DNA from: Candidatus Hermodarchaeota archaeon
Lineage (GTDB): Archaea > Asgardarchaeota > Heimdallarchaeia > Hodarchaeales > Hodarchaeaceae
NCBI GenBank assembly: GCA_048886185.1
Contig: JBHLKY010000001.1
Coordinates: 150,001 to 182,000 of the forward strand
Reading direction: 5' to 3'
Length of the DNA: 32,000 bases
Shown piece by piece: positions 4,083 to 31,238 of this stretch. Numbering within the stretch: position 1 is the first letter of the stretch; each line of letters opens with the position of its first letter. The position numbers and the translations under genes are program-made. The notes beneath the pieces are model-generated. The model made no database searches and had not been told where the DNA came from. It saw nothing but the letters and a program-made list of their open reading frames with translations.

Positions 4083-6212
4083 TTATCCTTCATTCCTTTT
4101 CTTTATTGGTGTTTCAATTAGTGATAACATTTCTCTTAACAACTCAGTAATTTCATCATGAGCTCCAATAATAAACTTCATACTACCCACTAATTCGTGC
4201 CCTCCCCCTTCTATTCCTGCTTTAGGGAGCTTTTTTGAACAATTTGAAACCAATTTGGGGAAATCTAATTGTACATTTTGAGAGCGGAAAATAGCAAAAT
4301 CAGGGCCTAAGCCTATAGTTACAAGAGGAGATTCTAGATCTTTTTTTGCTAGATGATCGAAAAGAGAACCTGTTATTTTTCCTGGAGGTGGGTAATCGAA
4401 TCTACTAGCATATTTCTCGACATCTAATATTGCTAAATGAATTCCATTCACTAACTTCTCTTCTTGAACATATTCTAGAGATATTTGTAACTGATTTTCA
4501 AGATGTTTACGAGCCTCATTTGATAAAAGCCTAACATAATTAATTTGTTTCTCCTGTTTTCCCTGTAGCCCTAAAAGATCGCTTAGGAGAAGACGTCCTG
4601 GTGAGAATTTTAAAAAATAGGCTTGGTAATCAACTGCTACAGCAATATCTTCTAGAAAATTCTCTGAATAATCCTTTTCTATAGCAATTGTTAAGTATTG
4701 GTTTAATTCGTCCCCTGATACACGATCACCTTTTCCTGCGATAGCTGGGAGATGGCTTATAGTGTCAGTGATATTAGGTTCAATTTGTCTGGCTAATTCA
4801 CAACCTAACATTCCAGTACATATATTATAGTCGCCACCAACAAAATAAACATTTAGATGAGTATCAATAGTATTTTGAATAATACTTGAGGGAAAATGAT
4901 GATCAATGACTATAATTTCTATTTCATATGATTTTAGTAAATTGTATGAGAATAAACTTTCCTCACTGCTTCCTGAATCTAAAATTACAATCAAAGGTAT
5001 TTTATCACCGAATCTATCCTGATCTGATAGCGCGAAATCAAGATCTCTAATTGCATCAATGGGATCATAAAAAGGAGGTTTATTAGGCGTTCTCTTAACT
5101 AGGTGCCTTAATTTTTCCTCATCTGTATCAAATAGTTGAAACCAAAGTTCTCGACATGCTGTCTCTAATGCAATTCCTGCAACAATTCCATCACAATCAT
5201 TATGATGTCTAATTATCACGGGTTGTAATTCTAGTAATGCTCGGCGAATTCTTTTTGCTATACTAACAAATTTTTCTTGTAATAAGTCCAGTGTTTCAGA
5301 TTTTATCATAAAATCGACTTTCGGGGGTTCACTTCGCGATTCAAGTAGATTTTCCATCTTTTGAGTAAATAAATTGGCATAAGTCTCATCAACGATGAAA
5401 ATATCGGAAATCTCAATTTGTTCTGAATCTCTGTGATGTGTGTATTCTCCCATAACTTCAACGATGTCTCCAACTTTGATTTCCTCCGCAAACTCAAGAT
5501 GAAATGCTGCAGCTTCTATCACACCTGTTTCATCTAAGAGGGTAAGAATTTTCGGCCCCCGAGGAATTTGATGAATGTTCTCAATCCTTGCGTGAATTGA
5601 GAAAAAAGTCCCAACTTCACGGTCTGTATTGATTTTCTGAAAAGGAACAACGTCATGGACACGTTTCCTTAAAATTTTGGAAGTATCTCTAATAGGTACC
5701 TCCAGAAATTCTAGCTTCTCACCTTTCTTATTTTTAAGTTTAACAAATAAGGGATCCCCTTTATTTCCCTCAAACTGTTTATTTCTAATTAATCCCTCTA
5801 CTTTTGGTGTCAGTTGAACAAAAAATCCAAAATCAGTATTTTTAACCATTGTGGCAGAGTAAACTTTCTTAAATTCTACTGTAGCTGATGAAGCAGGGGG
5901 AATCAACTCAAAAATAACTGGATTTTTTTCACACATCTCACATAGCTGTATTCCAGCTGGTATATTTTTCTCACAAACAATACACTGATTTTTCTTTGTT
6001 CCTGTTCCTTTACATACAGGACAGGTCTTTTCAATCGATTTTAATATCTGACCTGATCCTGAACAATCGGAACAGGCATTCTTCTTTGATGGTTTAGAAC
6101 CTACTATAATTTTTGTTGAACCCATTCCATGACAGGTTGGGCATTTAATCTTGCGTTCACTAGAGATTTTTCCCGTTCCAGAACATTTGGGGCACTTTGA
6201 AAGTGAAGACAT
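4083..6212 (-). CDS. Archaeal RecJ-like DHH exonuclease with DnaJ-type zinc finger and S1/OB folds (COG1107-like)
   Basis: Four CxxCxGxG repeats (CPKCSGTG, CPTCHGMG, CSDCSGSG, CPVCKGTG), OB-fold segments, DHH motifs HHNDCDG, ILDSGS, IDHHF, and a C-terminal GGGH. Confidence 0.92.
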   Translation of the reverse strand: MSSLSKCPKCSGTGKISSERKIKCPTCHGMGSTKIIVGSKPSKKNACSDCSGSGQILKSIEKTCPVCKGTGTKKNQCIVCEKNIPAGIQLCEMCEKNPVIFELIPPASSATVEFKKVYSATMVKNTDFGFFVQLTPKVEGLIRNKQFEGNKGDPLFVKLKNKKGEKLEFLEVPIRDTSKILRKRVHDVVPFQKINTDREVGTFFSIHARIENIHQIPRGPKILTLLDETGVIEAAAFHLEFAEEIKVGDIVEVMGEYTHHRDSEQIEISDIFIVDETYANLFTQKMENLLESRSEPPKVDFMIKSETLDLLQEKFVSIAKRIRRALLELQPVIIRHHNDCDGIVAGIALETACRELWFQLFDTDEEKLRHLVKRTPNKPPFYDPIDAIRDLDFALSDQDRFGDKIPLIVILDSGSSEESLFSYNLLKSYEIEIIVIDHHFPSSIIQNTIDTHLNVYFVGGDYNICTGMLGCELARQIEPNITDTISHLPAIAGKGDRVSGDELNQYLTIAIEKDYSENFLEDIAVAVDYQAYFLKFSPGRLLLSDLLGLQGKQEKQINYVRLLSNEARKHLENQLQISLEYVQEEKLVNGIHLAILDVEKYASRFDYPPPGKITGSLFDHLAKKDLESPLVTIGLGPDFAIFRSQNVQLDFPKLVSNCSKKLPKAGIEGGGHELVGSMKFIIGAHDEITELLREMLSLIETPIKKRNEG

Positions 6213-6501
6213 ATCATTTCACACATTTAGAAAACTTTAATGAAATTAAATTGATTTTAAGATTCCCAGTTTCTAAGGATATAGACATTAACGACGCTAT
6301 GTCTACTCCGAATAAAATTGAACAAGGTACTTATATTTATAGACAAATTATTTTATTTCAAATGATACAATTGTTGTATTAAATATAAAAAATACAGAAA
6401 AACGGTCAAGAATACAAATAGTATTCATTTAAAACAAGTCTATTTAAGATCAACGCATATTTTAATAGTAAATTCAAATAATATTTTTAGGTGAATATGT
6501 C

Positions 6502-24384: not shown

Positions 24385-24592
24385 TTAGGGGTCAACAGAT
24401 GATGGTTTCGCCTTATTCGAAATATTATTCCTTTTTCTGAGGCAATCTATATGCTCTTGCTCGTCTGATGCCCATTTGTGTATAATAATTGATAACACGG
24501 TGAAATTCTAACCTTTTTAATTTCTCTCGTTGGCCCTGAATTGATAAATCAATGAAATATTCTTTCATTGCAGGAGCCAAATCATGAGCAAC
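24208..24592 (-). repeat. Diverged tandem duplication of 153 nt (24440..24592 and 24208..24360), period 232 nt
   Basis: Both copies contain atgaaagaatatttca on the minus strand and align codon for codon without indels. Confidence 0.85.
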
Positions 24593-25459
24593 TTCAATAG
24601 GTATTTTGTTCCATTTTCTCAGAAATTTTTGTAATTTTAAGAGTTTTCGGGGATTATTAATCACAAATACGTTTTCTTCAGTTGTTATGAAATCCATTGC
24701 TTGCATAGATTGAGCTCCAAACACAAGACGAGCGGGAAAGGCTTCAAAAAGCAACTGACAATAGTTCACAATAACAGCTGAAAATGCACTTATGAGGGCT
24801 GAATCTAGCGGAGAATCATACTCTAAATGGATTGGTACTCCTGCACTTGAGTGAATGACTCCCCAAGGACGAGACGGTGTTAATGTTGAAAAATGAGTTT
24901 CGAACAGCTCTCTCAACAAGGCATGAAAAAACAGCAATTCTTCAAAACTTAATGCAGAGAAGGAACATTCACCATTCCCCACTGTTACATTTTCATTATA
25001 GGTTACTGCATTTATTGCTTCTTGGAAAAGCTGATCTACGATGTTTTTATCATGATTATTTTCTTCTTGTGAGTAAAATTGTGAATAGATGACTGAAGCA
25101 CCCCCTGCAAGAATACTCCTCATTTCATCCCAAGGAGCAGTTTCTAATTCTATTCGACTCATTAGTCTTGTCGTGACAAGAGGGTCAGAAATAACAATGC
25201 TGAATCTCTTCAATTTACTAGATAGATTTACAATCATAATTTCTCGTGCTTGACTTGGGTGAGGACGAGGATATCTTAACCTTACAATTCCAATTCCCTG
25301 ACCCCACAATTCTGCTCCTAATCTACTGACAGATCTCACGAAATCGAGTGTTTGTTCAAGCTTATCTTGGTTGAGATCACCAAAATGCCATTTCACTTCG
25401 TTTTCACTAGTTAGAATTGCCCAATTATTGAGATATAAACGACGCTGATTAGTAATCAT
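24425..25459 (-). CDS. Putative tandem longin-like domain protein
   Basis: Two segments with a beta-beta-alpha-beta-beta-beta-alpha pattern: NWAILTSENEVKWHF/LDFVRSVSRLGAELW/IGIVRL/EIMIVNL/FSIVISD and WGVIHSSAGVPIHLEY/DSALISAFSAVIVNY/ARLVFG/MDFIT/VFVIN. Start at ATG 25459 with GGAG 11 nt upstream (track start 25498). Confidence 0.6.
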   Translation of the reverse strand: MITNQRRLYLNNWAILTSENEVKWHFGDLNQDKLEQTLDFVRSVSRLGAELWGQGIGIVRLRYPRPHPSQAREIMIVNLSSKLKRFSIVISDPLVTTRLMSRIELETAPWDEMRSILAGGASVIYSQFYSQEENNHDKNIVDQLFQEAINAVTYNENVTVGNGECSFSALSFEELLFFHALLRELFETHFSTLTPSRPWGVIHSSAGVPIHLEYDSPLDSALISAFSAVIVNYCQLLFEAFPARLVFGAQSMQAMDFITTEENVFVINNPRKLLKLQKFLRKWNKIPIEVAHDLAPAMKEYFIDLSIQGQREKLKRLEFHRVINYYTQMGIRRARAYRLPQKKE

Positions 25460-25618
25460 TATAGAATGTTCTCCATGTCTGTTTTTTCTAATGTTCAATC
25501 GTTATCTTTAGTACTTCAATGAGGGGACTAAAAAGGATTTATTTATTAATTATGTAAAATGTAAATAGTAAATTTTCGCAGAATGTTTAGAATTATTTTG
25601 TTGCTTTCAATCTTTTTA

Positions 25619-26896
25619 TTAAGACAGAAATAATATATCATATATTAAGGTGCCATAATAATTTTCAGTTTCAATTATGGTGATTTGCAGTAAATCCATT
25701 GCAGCTTTTTTTCCAACTATCTTAGATAGATTATGTAAAAGTGAGTCCAAAAATGGGAGGAATGCGTTTTGAAAAAGTGGTGTCATTATTTGTGGGCGAG
25801 TATTTAATACAGCTTCTAATTTTTCAAAATATAAGCCTTTCATATAATTTTCTACAAGCTTAGCAATAGTTATTATCCTTCCTTTGTTTTTTGCCCGTTC
25901 TAGCTCATGATTAAATATTGTCTCAAAGATTGTGAAAGTGAAATTTTCTCCAAACATTTTAACCAGTTGGAGGCGAAATAACTTTAGAAATTCTTCAAAA
26001 ACAATTAGTAATAAACCAGAATCAGACAAGAGGCTGATATAACCACTAATTGACAGATATCGAAATAGTTGGATCATCCTCATTTTTTCTTGTGTTGTTA
26101 AATTCGCAGAGAGAGACTTAATTGAATGTCTTCCATCAATTTTTTGAGTAATCTTAATTCCCCATTCTCCCCAATGTTTAAAAATTGTCTGATAGGCCAT
26201 TCCTTGTTCTAATATGATACCGATATGAGCTTTTTCGATTTTAAAAATATCAGTGTTTTTTATTGCAATATCCACTGATTTTAAGTATCCTATCTCTTTT
26301 AATATTGCTGTTCTAGCAATACAATATTCTAATGGCCAATTAATTTTGCGAGAGATTTCTATAATAGCTAATTTCCCATCAAATAATTCCAATAGGGGTT
26401 TGTACTTAGATGGGATCTCTATTCCTCTATTTTTATAAGCTTCATCTTTTATTTGTTTGAAAATAAGGTTCTCATCTAAATGAGATAGCATAAATTTTCG
26501 AGTTAATTCACGAAAAGGAATGTATCTCTGGGTTTGTATATTTTGTTCTTTGATTTCCTTTAAATAATTAAATTCGAAAATATCAATGATTGCTCTAATT
26601 TTTTCCATTAAAATTTGACTTTCATTATCTACTACTAAAATAGCTTCGATTTCTTGACCACGTTCAAACATTATTTTCTTTCCTTCCCTTTCAATCACAT
26701 TTAATGTTCCACTCTCGCTTGATATATTATCCATCATACTATCAGAAAATGTCGAAATAGCATTTACCAATCCTCCTAAAATAATGGAATCAGTACGAGG
26801 AGCATAACTACTAAATTTAATGTCAAAAATTGTCAAACCAGAGATGTTTAACAAAAAATAAATGAGACCAGCTTTATCTAGGGATTCATTACTCAT
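25619..26896 (-). CDS. Longin domain plus two putative winged-helix domains
   Basis: N-terminus FLLNISGLTIF...DSIILGGLVNAISTFSDSM...LNVIEREGKKIMFERG..IEAILVVD fits the Asgard longin pattern; LELFDGKLAIIEISRK...LKEIGYL and QKIDGRHSIKSLS...LSISGYI are wHTH-like. Confidence 0.72.
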   Translation of the reverse strand: MSNESLDKAGLIYFLLNISGLTIFDIKFSSYAPRTDSIILGGLVNAISTFSDSMMDNISSESGTLNVIEREGKKIMFERGQEIEAILVVDNESQILMEKIRAIIDIFEFNYLKEIKEQNIQTQRYIPFRELTRKFMLSHLDENLIFKQIKDEAYKNRGIEIPSKYKPLLELFDGKLAIIEISRKINWPLEYCIARTAILKEIGYLKSVDIAIKNTDIFKIEKAHIGIILEQGMAYQTIFKHWGEWGIKITQKIDGRHSIKSLSANLTTQEKMRMIQLFRYLSISGYISLLSDSGLLLIVFEEFLKLFRLQLVKMFGENFTFTIFETIFNHELERAKNKGRIITIAKLVENYMKGLYFEKLEAVLNTRPQIMTPLFQNAFLPFLDSLLHNLSKIVGKKAAMDLLQITIIETENYYGTLIYDILFLS

Positions 26897-27249
26897 TTTG
26901 GTGCATCATCCAATTTGACGGGACTTGCGGGTTTTTTTGCTTTAGTTTTCAGCTCATCAAAAAATACTGAAATCTTCCATAATCCAAAGAAAACAAACCC
27001 AAATCCTATACTAATCAATACAAGAAAAACTAATTGTACTAAAGGATTCCAAATTGGATCCTGATAGTTTAAAATTGAGATAATTGTTTGAGAAAGCAAA
27101 CCACATGAAATAAAAAATGCTCCTAGGCTAATAATCTTATTACTGGTTCCAAAAATTCCTTCTAACCGAAATTGTTTAGCAGTTGTAACAAGACTAATCA
27201 TCATGCAGCATCCATAAAGCATACCACGAATAATGTCATATTCTTGCAT
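26893..27249 (-). CDS. Small 3-TM membrane protein of unknown function
   Basis: 118 aa with three hydrophobic segments and a charged tail; ATGA overlap with the longin-wHTH gene. Confidence 0.75.
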   Translation of the reverse strand: MQEYDIIRGMLYGCCMMISLVTTAKQFRLEGIFGTSNKIISLGAFFISCGLLSQTIISILNYQDPIWNPLVQLVFLVLISIGFGFVFFGLWKISVFFDELKTKAKKPASPVKLDDAPK

Positions 27250-27444
27250 ATTTTCACCATCAATTTCCTAGCGACTTTTATTAACTCTTAATTCTCCCTA
27301 TAAATTCATTTGTATCCAAAATAATTCTGATTTTAAACTTATGTTCAACAGGAGTTTGGTTTCTAAAACTTTTTAATACGACAAATATCTAATGAGATCT
27401 CACTATATAATAATTCCTGAATTAGAAACGACTTGAGTGATAAT

Positions 27445-29397
27445 CTAATGATGATTAAAGTACTTGTGGTGAGTTTCTAATTGTTTGATTACTTCTTTTT
27501 TAAATAAATCAGGTAATCTATAAAGCTCAAAAATTAAATCATCTAATGAACAACATAATTCTGATATTTTTCCTTTCTCAGTACAGAATGGACATAATTG
27601 TAAGAAAATCTCTTTAGAAGATGAAAACTGCTCAAGTGACTTGCTAAGGGAAGATACTTCTTCTTCGATTGAAGTGCAAATATCATTTTTCAAAGGATTA
27701 AGTCGAGGTAGGGGTATCAACCCTATATCTGCTGGCGGAACAGCTGCTGTTAGGTTAATCTGATGGATAAACCAGTTTATTAGAAGAGAGTTAAAAATTC
27801 CTAATAATAAATTAGTAGAAACATATATTGAAGTCGAATTACAATCTAAAAGAAAATAATTCAAGTTATTTTCGACCCAAATTCTGTTGTGAGTTTTAAG
27901 GTGGTCTTCCGAGATCAAACCAGAAACAACTCTACGTAATTGTTCTCTAGCAGTAATTCGTTGGAACACAATTCGGGGAGTATTGGCGTGCTTTTTTCGA
28001 AAGATAGTGTTATCCATTGATGATGGTTGTAAGTACCAACGAGGCTTATGGCGATTTTCTGATAGATTGATTATAAAAGGATGGACATTCTTCCCATTTA
28101 ATACAATCTCGAAATTTGAAATGTTATCTTTTTCAAGAATCTTTTTATAGTAAAAAGGTCGGATTTTGCTATCAGCAGGTCTTATTTCTCCGCTTTGAAT
28201 TTTGTATACATCTTTTAAACAGATAGAATTCTTTCTAATAAGCCTAATTATTTCAAATGTTTTAGGGTATGGTGAAGGAATAATTTTATCCTGAAAAAGT
28301 AGAAGGGGGGTTGAAATGTCACCTTCAGTAATTTCACCTAGGACTAATTCTTCTATATTACAGGTTCGTATTATATGAGTTTGCTCTTTTTCTTCACCCC
28401 CTTTCTTCTTCTGTAAAACTAATAAGCAGGTTCCTTGAAGAACATTAGGAAAGATATGAGTTCGACTTACAAAATCAACCACTTCGCGTAAATGGAATTG
28501 CGAGAGAAGGAATTTACGAACCTCTACACTATAATAATCAGTCAATACTGAATTTGAAGTTAAGAAAGTTGCGATTCCATCTGAAGTCAAAAGCTCATTC
28601 ACACGGGTTAAAAAAAGGTGATAAAGATTAAATCGATTAATAAATATCTGTTTTTGGTATAATTGGCGATAAATTTGGTTATCTTTTGATGAAATATCTT
28701 TTGTTACATAGGGTGGATTACATAAAACGAGATTAAAACCTTTATTTTCATGATTAAAAATTCTTGGAAATTCCTTATACCAATGAAAAAATTGATTTTC
28801 GTTAATACTTAATTCTTCTTTCTGGAGTAATTCAAGAAATCTTTTTTGATCTTCAGGTTTAGTACTTCCAAGTAAGACATTACCATGCCTAATCTGGTGA
28901 TTTAAAGTGTTCTGCACTTCTTTGAGCTTATTTTGAGTTAAATTGGATTCATTTTGTCCTAATAACCATTTTTTTAGCTCCTTTTGGCAAGTATGAATTG
29001 CTTTAGGATTAAAATCTACTCCATGTAAATTGTTCTGGATTATCTGAAATCTAACATCTGTTGAATCTGAGGAATTACAATGAATTGCTTCTAGAAATTT
29101 ACCTGCTTCTAAAAGAAAAACTCCATTTCCAACTCCAAGATCGAGAATTTTGATATCCTTTATTAGCTCTTGCATTTGTAGGCGTGTTGAATAATTAATG
29201 GTATCTTTAGGAATTTTTGATGCTGTTACCTGTGATAAGAATTTCAATAATAATTTTTTAGGTAATCGTTGGTGAAAAAATTGTTGGAATGCCGACCAGA
29301 CCACAAATTGAGCTAGTATGGTTGGTGTGTAATAGGTACCAAGCGATTCTTTCTTATTTGAGGATTTCACTTGTAACACCTGGTGAGACCCGTTCAT
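27445..29397 (-). CDS. Gamma-class N6-adenine DNA methyltransferase (M.TaqI/Eco57I-like) with C-terminal target-recognition domain
   Basis: GTYYTP, motif I LDLGVGNGVFL, HGVDFN, FHWYKEFP, motif IV LCNPPY, IVFQRIT in the C-terminal domain. Confidence 0.9.
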   Translation of the reverse strand: MNGSHQVLQVKSSNKKESLGTYYTPTILAQFVVWSAFQQFFHQRLPKKLLLKFLSQVTASKIPKDTINYSTRLQMQELIKDIKILDLGVGNGVFLLEAGKFLEAIHCNSSDSTDVRFQIIQNNLHGVDFNPKAIHTCQKELKKWLLGQNESNLTQNKLKEVQNTLNHQIRHGNVLLGSTKPEDQKRFLELLQKEELSINENQFFHWYKEFPRIFNHENKGFNLVLCNPPYVTKDISSKDNQIYRQLYQKQIFINRFNLYHLFLTRVNELLTSDGIATFLTSNSVLTDYYSVEVRKFLLSQFHLREVVDFVSRTHIFPNVLQGTCLLVLQKKKGGEEKEQTHIIRTCNIEELVLGEITEGDISTPLLLFQDKIIPSPYPKTFEIIRLIRKNSICLKDVYKIQSGEIRPADSKIRPFYYKKILEKDNISNFEIVLNGKNVHPFIINLSENRHKPRWYLQPSSMDNTIFRKKHANTPRIVFQRITAREQLRRVVSGLISEDHLKTHNRIWVENNLNYFLLDCNSTSIYVSTNLLLGIFNSLLINWFIHQINLTAAVPPADIGLIPLPRLNPLKNDICTSIEEEVSSLSKSLEQFSSSKEIFLQLCPFCTEKGKISELCCSLDDLIFELYRLPDLFKKEVIKQLETHHKYFNHH

Positions 29398-29412
29398 TTC
29401 AACAATAATTAT

Positions 29413-30213
29413 TTATAGAAAGCTGTCTAGATTGATGATTTGACTCCGATTAATATATTCAAGTCGAGATTGAAAAGATTTGGCATTTTCCAAATTCTTC
29501 TGAGACTCAAGAACATATTCTGGATTGATTTCAATCCCTAGATATTTGCGATCGAGGAGTTTAGCTACGATTGCAGTTGTTCCTACTCCAAGAAAAGGGT
29601 CGAAAACTAGGTCTCCTTCATCAGAAGATGTCAGAATTATCCTTTCCATGAAAGTTAAAGGTAATTGAGTAGGGTGTTTATCATGTCTCTTCTTTCTATG
29701 CTTGATTCTATAAATATTAGTCCAGATATCTGAAAATGGCTTTTCTATCAAAGGAGTATTGATTCGTTTATCAATACATTGTGCTCGTGCGCAATGAGTC
29801 CAATTATGCTTAGAAGTTAATTTGTTGAACGTGTACTTCTTGTTTGATTTTGTGTAGAAAAGTAATGAATAATGAGCAGGCATTATCTTACCACGGGGAG
29901 CTGATAAAGCATCCCAAGCGATGGTATTTTGTCGAAATAAGAATTTATCTAAAAAAACTGCATGATTAATAGCCCATTTTGGAAGATTTAATAGATAGAA
30001 CGATCCGTCTGGCTTTAATAATCGTACTATTTCAATAATCCATTTTTCAGCCCATTTAAGATAATTTTGAGTGGTAGTGGAATCATCATATATACCATAA
30101 TCTTTCTCCAGATTATAAGGAGGATCTGCAAAAGCTAAATCGACTATGCCTGAGGGAAGGTTTTTCATTTCTTCAATGCAATCCCCATTGATAATTCGAT
30201 TTTCAAAACTCAT
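29413..30213 (-). CDS. Beta-class N6/N4 DNA methyltransferase
   Basis: IINGDCIEEM, motif IV FADPPYN preceding HPTQLP and motif I VFDPFLGVGTT, YLGIEIN; own SD GGAGTGA 6 nt before the ATG. Confidence 0.93.
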   Translation of the reverse strand: MSFENRIINGDCIEEMKNLPSGIVDLAFADPPYNLEKDYGIYDDSTTTQNYLKWAEKWIIEIVRLLKPDGSFYLLNLPKWAINHAVFLDKFLFRQNTIAWDALSAPRGKIMPAHYSLLFYTKSNKKYTFNKLTSKHNWTHCARAQCIDKRINTPLIEKPFSDIWTNIYRIKHRKKRHDKHPTQLPLTFMERIILTSSDEGDLVFDPFLGVGTTAIVAKLLDRKYLGIEINPEYVLESQKNLENAKSFQSRLEYINRSQIINLDSFL

Positions 30214-31123
30214 AAGGATTCACTCCATCATAAGGAGCAAGAAGTAGAGTTGATGTAGAGGTGCATGATAAGTCAACTAATCGTTTTAAGACTGAAGAAA
30301 GTAGCGGATTTACTGTAATCAGTTGATTAGAAGAAAAATCTGGATGCCAAATGTCTGATAATACCATTCCATTTCTATGTCTAAGGTGTTTTTTTCCGCC
30401 ATAATCTTTTAGTGGTTTATTACAAAAGGAGCAAAAACGATATGGTATCCTAACACGATTAATTCTGAATTTTTTAGGAGATTTCACATAATACAAGATA
30501 CAATTTGCTTCTGATTTGTATTTTCTTGAAACATCAACATGAGGGATTTCCTCTGAATAAACAATCCAATATTTAAAATAAAGACCTAAATGATTAAGTT
30601 TAACACCAAAATAAGGTAAATAACGAGGAATTGAATGGATCAAAACATTTCCATTGGATTTTAGAATCCGTAAAGTCTCCTCTAGGTAGCCATAAACTTC
30701 TTTTATAAGTGATGAATTAGAAATGTTATGATATGACGAAGTATCTTGTTTCTCCTTAAATGTAAATTTTGGAAAAAGAATCCACGTATCAACACTTTGA
30801 TCCTTAATTTCAGCTAATTTCTTCATTTCAGACGATTGTAATACTATAAAGTTTGATGGAATGATATCCTTAACACTGTCCCTTCTATGTTTACGTGCTA
30901 GAAAACGTTCCTTTCCTGCCTCAGGATCCTTAATATTGTAAACTGCCATCAACTCTGATAATTTGAAGAATCCTTTTACCTTTAAGGGATTTTTAAGCTG
31001 TGTTCCATTTTTGTCATACTTTTTTAATAAACCACGTTCTATTTGTAGTCGGATGTTCTCCTCCGCATGATTGGAATAAATCACTGCATCTTTCAATGTT
31101 ATAAAACGATCACGTTTAGGCAT
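30203..31123 (-). CDS. HTH-fused degenerate beta-class methyltransferase homolog
   Basis: HTH-like N-terminus (ITLKDAVIYS...NIRLQIERGLLKKY); MTase-fold landmarks EIKDQSVDT, RILKSNGNVLI, FKYWIV, LKDYGG, LSDIW; motif IV reads FPKF and motif I reads APYDGVN followed by a stop. Confidence 0.75.
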   Translation of the reverse strand: MPKRDRFITLKDAVIYSNHAEENIRLQIERGLLKKYDKNGTQLKNPLKVKGFFKLSELMAVYNIKDPEAGKERFLARKHRRDSVKDIIPSNFIVLQSSEMKKLAEIKDQSVDTWILFPKFTFKEKQDTSSYHNISNSSLIKEVYGYLEETLRILKSNGNVLIHSIPRYLPYFGVKLNHLGLYFKYWIVYSEEIPHVDVSRKYKSEANCILYYVKSPKKFRINRVRIPYRFCSFCNKPLKDYGGKKHLRHRNGMVLSDIWHPDFSSNQLITVNPLLSSVLKRLVDLSCTSTSTLLLAPYDGVNPYEF

Positions 31124-31238
31124 TCCAATCGAGCTTTTTTGATGATCTAAGAATTATAAGGATTGTGCTTGATATTTTCCCACTGAGAAGTTTTTAACTG
31201 ATTAATTATAGCCTCCTCTTACTTTAGGAGTAACTATT

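Follow-up and report, generated by a model that had tools for sequence, protein, structure and literature searches.

The window analysed here is a stretch of 32,000 nucleotides (nt) from contig JBHLKY010000001.1 of a Candidatus Hermodarchaeota archaeon of the order Hodarchaeales, and our subject is an operon within it whose first two genes encode a pair of proteins related to beta-class DNA methyltransferases (MTases). Three genes, encoding P0001, P0002 and P0003, are arranged head to tail on the minus strand, with a divergent gene for a geranylgeranyl-reductase-like FAD enzyme (GGR) upstream of them. P0003 starts 15 nt past the stop codon of P0002, and P0001 and P0002 overlap, which together with the GGAG sequence inside P0001 points to translational coupling of the two (Table 1). 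The initial annotation of this DNA, made from its letters alone, had proposed that P0001 is a catalytically dead MTase paralogue that partners the intact P0002. The open reading frames (ORFs) and coordinates on which it drew, the FPKF and APYDG sequences, the uninterrupted frame of P0001, the P0002 motifs and the internal Shine-Dalgarno sequence were all reproduced exactly on re-checking. Below, modules of the P0001 type are termed D and those of the P0002 type A.

Table 1. Features of the operon in the window (aa, amino acids; HTH, helix-turn-helix; AF2, AlphaFold2).
Feature	Positions	Strand	Basis
P0001, non-catalytic D subunit, 306 aa, HTH-like head and truncated beta-MTase-like module	30203..31123	minus	ORF, profile, structure matches
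P0001 residues 1-85, candidate MerR/Xis-like winged HTH domain	30869..31123	minus	alignment, AF2 model, weak Foldseek list
P0001 FPKF at the motif IV position, residues 117-120	30764..30775	minus	alignment
P0001 CxxC-x4-KDYGGKKHLRH loop, residues 231-249	30377..30433	minus	alignment
P0001 SDIW, residues 256-259	30347..30358	minus	alignment
P0001 APYDG, motif I remnant, residues 296-300	30224..30238	minus	alignment, model
GGAG inside the P0001 3' end, 9 nt upstream of the P0002 ATG (30213-30211)	30223..30226	minus	
P0001/P0002 overlap, 11 nt, different frames	30203-30213	minus	
P0002, catalytic A subunit, intact beta-class amino-MTase, 266 aa	29413..30213	minus	
P0002 motif IV DPPY, residues 30-33, invariant in the P0002 family	30115..30126	minus	
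P0002 motif I DPFLGVGTT, residues 205-213	29575..29601	minus	
P0003, gamma-class Eco57I-type N6-adenine MTase, 650 aa	27445..29397	minus	profile matches

P0001 is a beta-class methyltransferase relative that lacks catalytic and cofactor-binding motifs

P0001 is a true relative of the beta-class MTases and not the product of a chance pattern. It matches the N6_N4_Mtase profile of Pfam (PF01555; E 1.1e-6, 29.2 bits against a cut-off of 26.7), PRK11524 of NCBIfam (E 1e-10) and MTase_II of PADLOC (E 3.5e-26), and a profile built from the P0001 family finds M.MboIIA in the PDB with an E value of 4.8e-14. Foldseek searches with the AF2 model of P0001, which has a predicted local distance difference test score (pLDDT) of 77, return M.MboIIA, M.BceJIV, CcrM and M.RsrI at E values of 2e-9 to 4e-7. 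The remnants of its motifs also stand in the beta order, with motif IV followed by the recognition domain and then motif I. Identity to P0002 is 22% across 91 residues, and P0001 is therefore no recent duplicate of its neighbour.

The catalytic motif IV, (D/S/N)PP(Y/F/W), is missing from P0001, as it is from all 34 D modules in the phylogenetic tree described below; in the alignment, P0001 reads VDTWILFPKF where P0002 reads VDLAFADPPY. Nor does P0001 encode the motifs I-III that bind S-adenosylmethionine (SAM), namely the DPFxGxGTT loop, beta2 and beta3. The frame, which is open through all 306 codons, ends six residues (VNPYEF) after APYDG, and in the AF2 model the MTase sheet consists of beta4 to beta7 and beta1, with nothing beyond beta1; the gene encodes no G-loop, no helix A and no motif II or III. 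Given this truncation and the motif losses, P0001 is predicted to be incapable of binding SAM.

P0002 matches PF01555 over profile positions 1-220 of 221 (E 1.3e-48) and has the DPPY motif, the HPxQLP element and DPFxGxGTT, all of them invariant across 32 relatives. Among solved structures, M.BceJIV, M.MboIIA and CcrM are closest to it.

The degenerate module is conserved

A protein search with P0001 gave 38 matches, 35 of them full length (303-343 aa, 39-69% identity); wherever the source of a full-length relative is named, it is a metagenome-assembled genome (MAG) of Heimdall-, Hod- or Odinarchaeota. The motif IV position is degenerate in all 35 relatives, reading SPKF, SPRF, APEF, FFPY and others, and every one of them stops 3-16 residues past AP(F/Y)xG. 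The alignment of these 35 sequences nevertheless has 50 invariant columns, which include much of the HTH-like region, D112, P170/Y171, F183/W186, C231/C234, KDYGGKK, H249, S256/D257/W259 and LL.AP..G. Four of the invariant residues, P170, Y171, F183 and W186, belong to the predicted dimer interface, and the KDYGG loop is presumably a DNA-contact element of the recognition domain. Conservation of this kind in a module that has lost its catalytic motifs reads as the signature of selection for a non-catalytic function.

The D module occurs next to, or fused to, an active module

We scanned 400 Asgard genomes for the P0001 family. Within the window's genus, 12 of 21 further species have it, and no other family of the same order or class among those scored does. 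By tblastn, a P0002-like gene adjoins every P0001-like copy where the contig continues, and the two genes overlap at each locus that extends far enough. The closed Heimdallarchaeota genome CP070695 has the gene order GGR, a 304-aa protein, an overlapping 265-aa protein and an Eco57I-type protein of 634 aa, and in an Odinarchaeota MAG the D-A pair, again overlapping, stands alone. The closest P0002 relatives outside Heimdall-, Hod- and Odinarchaeota (about 50% identity) are from Omnitrophica, a JGI contig and Thorarchaeota, and each is preceded by a full-length P0001 homologue of 301-305 aa that has the same HTH-like region, loop and truncated end.

For wider comparison a D module was taken as one that lacks motif IV, carries CxxC-KDYGGKKHL...SD.W and is truncated past beta1, and an A module as one with DPPY and no KDYGG loop; by these features the window encodes a D protein directly upstream of an A protein. 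The same two modules also occur in a single polypeptide. Two other Asgard families have ORFs of 582-592 aa that comprise a D module without the HTH, a linker and a complete A module. Searched with a profile, a set of 1.84 billion representatives yielded 514 matches at E<=1e-3, and among the best 150 representative clusters there are at least 47 tandems of D followed by DPPY, with CxxC-KD(Y/W)GG near residue 140 and DPPY near residue 270, as well as 34 active single-module MTases that have DPPF and CxxC-KDYGG in one chain. The fused D-A proteins, of about 570-600 aa, include those of Bacillus sp. V33-4 (WP_101665691.1), a Blastocatellia MAG and two IMG/VR viral contigs (L069 and L070, each with a 589-aa D-then-DPPY protein); most other viral matches are active single-module relatives of 312-337 aa. 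Paired and fused forms with conserved degeneracy, for which the initial annotation had suggested a survey of homologues, are thus present in Asgard archaea, bacteria and viral contigs. Its description of the pair as an independent archaeal case has to be given up: the same combination of an HTH-bearing dead protein and an active one exists in bacteria beside a restriction-endonuclease-like gene, and fusions exist in Bacillus, Blastocatellia and viral contigs.

One of the active single-module enzymes, with DPPF and CxxC-KDYGG, is encoded at positions 3-755 of contig L020 (G298:C140) and is followed by an overlapping ORF of 459 aa (737-2113).

Single origin and complementary losses

A maximum-likelihood tree of 82 modules (a quick search, with support from the Shimodaira-Hasegawa-like approximate likelihood ratio test, SH-aLRT, only) places all 34 D modules in one clan (SH-aLRT 100) and all 31 partner A modules in another (95). 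Within these, the 13 D modules of split pairs form one clan (89), as do the 10 A modules of split pairs (90), and sub-clades for the window, for Odin and Thor, and for bacteria are present in both the D and the A half of the tree. The clans and their matching sub-clades indicate that inactivation happened once, that the split form with the HTH arose once, and that the two genes have been inherited as a unit. D-module branches are two to three times as long as those of A modules.

Longer branches, together with the loss of the catalytic and SAM-binding motifs, would also be expected if P0001 had no function and were either a duplicate in decay or the remains of a fused gene that broke apart. 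We regard this as exceedingly improbable, since the 50 invariant columns persist in sequences down to 39% identity, the length and end point of the protein are conserved, the frame is open at all loci, and the two-gene layout recurs across phyla, bacteria included. A recent pseudogene or an assembly artefact was likewise rejected, on this conservation and because more than 15 independent assemblies have the same layout, with the two genes in different frames. Intact motifs in close orthologues, as a sign of recent decay, or a single fused gene had been named at the outset as grounds against the proposal; none of the 35 relatives has intact motifs, and the assemblies show two separate genes.

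How the parts have been shared out is seen when D, A and single-module MTases are aligned. Single-module enzymes combine DPPF, the CxxC-KDYGG loop, HRIRH..HPCQLP and motif I in one chain. The D module keeps the loop and SD.W only, motif IV and HRIKH...HPxQLP being gone, and the A module keeps DPPY, HRIKH..HP(T/C)QLP and motif I, but where the KDYGG loop would be it contains a shorter segment, C.R..C. The SD.W element (SDIW in P0001) is common to all three. As read from this alignment, the losses of D and A are complementary.

A predicted complex and a model for its action

Structure prediction places P0001 and P0002 in a complex. The interaction prediction score from aligned errors (ipSAE) was 0.86 in three runs, while the best of three controls scored 0.00; of 80 solved complexes 58 reach the mark applied to this score, as do 2 of 110 mismatched pairs. 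At least 91% of contacts agree between the three runs, with a partner pLDDT of at least 81. The predicted interface comprises residues 166-190, 198-206, 221-239 and 253-260 of P0001 and residues 78-99, 104-119 and 138-163 of P0002, and it brings together homologous segments, PRYLPYFG/FKYW of P0001 and PKWAINHA/RQNTIAW of P0002. This suggests the pseudo-symmetric arrangement of a beta-class dimer. The invariant KDYGGKKHLRH block lies outside the predicted interface, as would be expected of a loop that faces DNA.

A DNA-binding surface of a beta-class dimer is composed of the catalytic face of one subunit and its partner's recognition domain, a division of labour that is established for EcoP15I Mod and CcrM (PMC7544214). 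We consider it likely that P0001 and P0002 are an obligate heterodimeric DNA amino-MTase with one active site, the split form of a D-A tandem of restriction-modification (R-M) ancestry. According to this model, P0002 (A) would bind SAM and hold the sole catalytic pocket, and P0001 (D) would be a pseudo-enzyme that keeps the canonical beta-class dimer interface and the recognition loop (CxxC-KDYGGKKHL...SDIW). The dimer would then have a single productive surface, made of the A pocket and the D loop, and the reciprocal surface would have neither a working pocket nor the loop, which would explain which parts D and A have each kept. The winged HTH of D might provide an extra DNA anchor, like the C-terminal domain of CcrM and perhaps like the HNH_repeat tail of the fused proteins.

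The core of the initial proposal, a dead beta-MTase paralogue that partners an intact enzyme, is well supported by the motif losses and the conservation of what remains, by adjacency, congruent trees, fusions and complementary losses, and by the complex prediction. That the two proteins bind one another is suggested by the predicted complex, by the fused forms and, indirectly, by the congruent trees. Putative, too, are the roles given here to the loop and to the HTH, the assignment of DNA as the substrate, and that of N6-methyladenine (m6A) rather than N4-methylcytosine (m4C) as the product; among solved and curated proteins, those most closely related are adenine MTases.

Several observations weigh against the heterodimer model or parts of it. 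In the single-chain model of P0001 the recognition-loop region has a pLDDT below 50. The complex prediction supports binding, but its high score may partly reflect solved beta-MTase homodimers that the predictor has memorised, and the excess of conserved residues at the predicted interface is modest (19 of 51, compared with 40 of 167; one-sided Fisher p = 0.047). All Asgard members keep the AP(F/Y)DG remnant unchanged despite the loss of the SAM site, a conservation that the model does not account for; in bacterial D members it has been lost (LLMLKLD, LLLVKVNG). A BanI-like neighbour of one fused relative, described below, hints at an m4C product in part of the family, the BanI site, GGYRCC, having no fixed adenine. 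Lastly, the genes that flank the operon in the window and at the CP070695, Odin and Thor loci include none that is nuclease-like.

A dead subunit that sits on a normal dimer interface could also poison homodimers, and P0001 might accordingly be a dominant-negative regulator that caps P0002 monomers and so lowers or delays methylation. We hold this to be very unlikely. Constitutive D-A fusions and translational coupling imply a designed 1:1 stoichiometry, and the A protein is without the KDYGG loop of its single-module relatives, so that it probably needs D.

Two groups of cysteines in the proposed partners deserve mention. C231, C234, H246 and H249 of P0001 make up a C-x2-C-x11-H-x2-H pattern, with H246 present in about 90% of sequences, and P0002 has two invariant cysteines, C141 and C146 (C-x4-C). 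Both cysteine-bearing segments are on the list of predicted interface residues. A C2H2-like metal site in the D loop, perhaps between the subunits, is possible.

The N-terminal domain of P0001

The first 85 residues of P0001 are modelled as a beta-helix-helix-wing unit, with a pLDDT of 83 over residues 1-88. Foldseek matches to this region are dominated by MerR-type winged HTH proteins (BldC, GlnR/TnrA, CadR, Xis and gpNu1, with weak E values), the best being BldC with a probability of 0.97 and a root-mean-square deviation of 3.1 A across 59 columns. No Foldseek match to the domain reached E<=0.001, and Pfam does not recognise it. We therefore treat the winged HTH as a lead suggested by the model. 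This region contains 18 of the 50 family-invariant residues.

The HTH is absent from the N-terminus of the fused D-A forms, which carry a C-terminal HNH_repeat (PF18780) instead, and this exchange suggests that the HTH of split forms and the HNH_repeat of fused forms have a generic accessory role in DNA binding. Targeting of loci by the HTH and added specificity, both put forward in the initial annotation, are conjectural.

MTases with N-terminal HTH regions that regulate their own expression are known, and P0001 could be mainly a transcription factor, a controller of the C-protein or M.SsoII type whose HTH represses or times the operon, with P0002 acting as an ordinary homodimer. Its gene opens the operon, and no other part of the protein is as well conserved in the Asgard clade as the HTH-like domain. 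Against this, fused relatives carry a D module without the HTH that is covalently tied to A, and D keeps its dimer-interface residues and the loop of its recognition domain. The bacterial locus L042, from Omnitrophica, already has a separate small HTH_3 controller-like gene upstream of its split pair. A search for operators in the upstream regions of 15 orthologues found no conserved palindrome, with promoter-like conservation among the closest relatives only, in regions that are too divergent from one another for a firm negative. Because D persists without the HTH in fusions and L042 has its own controller-like gene, a controller function is less likely to be the main role of the HTH, and we judge this account as a whole improbable. 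The two roles, controller and subunit, are mutually compatible.

Two short proteins, P0195 (87 aa) and P0264 (75 aa), match the P0001 profile in the HTH only, at positions 1-82 and 1-64; these could be proteins cut short at contig ends or HTH genes that stand by themselves.

Restriction-modification ancestry and the role of the operon in Asgard archaea

Relatives of the D-A pair are found beside endonuclease-like genes. On a Bacillus-like contig (L032) an RE_BanI-family gene (4519-5541, minus strand) lies divergently upstream of a 602-aa fused D-A-HNH_repeat MTase. At two loci with split pairs, L042 and L044, an ORF of 229 aa (5775-6464, minus strand, in both) is convergent with the bacterial A gene and overlaps it. 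This protein has no match in Pfam or PADLOC, but in the ESM Atlas it resembles EcoRV/SwaI/NgoBV-like endonucleases (feature score 0.97; structural TM by query 0.65-0.81), and it is probably the cognate nuclease of the bacterial split D-A MTase. Because its relatives adjoin such genes, the D-A family is rooted in type II R-M.

A further locus (L033, 4766-7611) encodes a 536-aa tandem D-A protein whose gene overlaps that of an upstream 414-aa PF01555/UPF0020 MTase, followed by an ORF of 233 aa and an HTH_3 gene. It looks like an R-M locus with two MTases.

In four species of the window's genus that are without the operon (G057, G058, G059 and G064; loci L038-L041), GGR directly abuts a homologue of the 357-aa ORF that lies downstream of the operon in the window, where the distance between them is about 5.7 kb longer. 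Missing along with the operon in these species are the 118-aa and 425-aa downstream genes (window positions 24425-31238). The operon-bearing genomes share the GGR flank, so that the operon holds one chromosomal site across the clade. It follows that the operon is an old insertion that has been inherited vertically in a sub-clade, or else that it has been lost from the other species.

When searched against the genome to which the window belongs, the 229-aa endonuclease-like protein had no match, although a single query was used. Because of this, and because no nuclease-like gene stands beside the operon, the Asgard operon is probably an orphan or domesticated methylation system.

The strongest competing account of its role is that of a complete R-M system, in which the D-A enzyme and P0003 would mark the two strands of an asymmetric site that is cut by an unrecognised or unlinked endonuclease. 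It is in keeping with the endonuclease-like genes beside relatives and with the fast divergence of P0003, which in operon-bearing genomes is 41-53% identical to the window copy compared with 70-86% for GGR, as in R-M genes that change specificity. Two different MTases in one operon are, moreover, typical of type IIS systems. The missing flanking nuclease, the unmatched 229-aa query and the fixed chromosomal site nonetheless speak for an orphan system, and we think completeness unlikely, if much less so than the alternatives considered above. The question concerns the biological role only; a complete R-M system would be compatible with the heterodimer mechanism.

Comparison with other methyltransferases

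CcrM, M.EcoP15I Mod2, M.MboIIA, M.RsrI and M.BceJIV share the fold and motif order of the D-A pair, and in these enzymes one subunit catalyses while the other contacts DNA. They are homodimers, whereas in the D-A family the two roles appear hard-wired into two polypeptides or into two modules of one chain. Among active enzymes, the closest relatives of D are the single-module MTases with DPPF and CxxC-KDYGG (for instance P0182, P0201 and many phage copies, L049-L071), which have in common with it CxxC-KDYGG(K)...SD.W and the PxW/YLP...FK(Y/H)WI segment. Unlike D, these have motif IV, HRIRH..HPCQLP and the full set of motifs I-III in the chain, and they stand alone. The fused D-A-HNH_repeat MTases, such as WP_101665691.1, contain the same modules in the same order as the window pair but in one polypeptide, and with HNH_repeat in place of the HTH.

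The eukaryotic METTL3-METTL14 complex and the MTA1-MTA9 complex of ciliates (with p1 and p2) likewise combine an active beta-class subunit with an inactive paralogue that is needed for substrate binding, and with accessory nucleic-acid-binding domains. METTL14 and MTA9, however, keep a complete fold, while D is truncated past beta1, and the D-A pair belongs to PF01555 with relatives tied to R-M. The initial annotation had claimed no ancestry with MT-A70, and we too found no link: neither P0001 nor P0002 matches PF05063 (MT-A70) at E<=1, and MT-A70 proteins are distant Foldseek matches of the P0001 model (ranks 25-50), as they are for any beta-class MTase. A published analysis found no Asgard donor for MT-A70 (PMC12695648).

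Parallels also exist in other enzyme classes. In DNMT3A-DNMT3L and Trm61-Trm6 a truncated or inactive paralogue that cannot bind the cofactor has been retained and either stimulates the active MTase or is obligatory for it. These are a C5 DNA MTase and a tRNA m1A MTase, respectively, and differ from the D-A pair in belonging to unrelated classes, in being eukaryotic and in using other interfaces.

The division of labour in beta-class enzymes has so far been deduced from a few homodimer structures, and heterodimers with a pseudo-subunit have been discussed as a eukaryotic feature, METTL3-METTL14 and MTA1-MTA9 being the examples. The D-A family would offer a natural experiment in prokaryotes in which the two roles are genetically separated, in split as well as fused form, and the model can be put to a direct test with small, soluble proteins. 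A limited literature search, without REBASE, found no description of a dead/active beta-MTase pair or tandem in prokaryotes, and the family, which is widespread in prokaryotes, is apparently undescribed. Pfam and NCBIfam miss the D module or barely detect it, with the result that split D genes are labelled 'hypothetical' or 'DNA methyltransferase' and fused proteins show an unexplained N-terminus of 250 residues. It is tempting to go further and to suppose that prokaryotes arrived at the solution of METTL3-METTL14 and MTA1-MTA9 long ago and widely, with one live and one dead subunit and reciprocal losses, and that the Hodarchaeales copy, long retained with a second MTase and no nuclease at a single chromosomal site, is a domesticated, strand-asymmetric epigenetic writer whose MerR-like HTH helps to choose where it acts, but this extended picture is speculative and we think it rather unlikely.

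P0003 and neighbouring genes

P0003 has an NPPY motif and a TaqI_C-like recognition domain and contains no nuclease domain. It is joined to the D-A pair in the window's genus-level clade only. An ancient and specific link between P0003 and the pair was rejected: the Eco57I-type gene at the Thor locus has no more than generic motifs in common with P0003, and such a gene is missing from the Odin locus and from the bacterial ones.

The ORFs of 425 and 357 aa downstream of the operon in the window have no match in Pfam, and the 182-aa neighbour of the Odin pair has none in PADLOC. A 489-aa neighbour in CP070695 was considered as a nuclease and found unlikely to be one, since it has no confident feature match and resembles, only moderately, epimerase- and glycoside-hydrolase-like models (TM by query 0.47-0.58); a homologue of it is encoded on another contig of the window's genome.

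Identity to the window copy in operon-bearing genomes is 67-76% for P0002 and 59-72% for P0001, so P0003 changes far more rapidly than the genes around it, as though its specificity were shifting. The C-terminal end of P0003 carries a CPFC...C motif.

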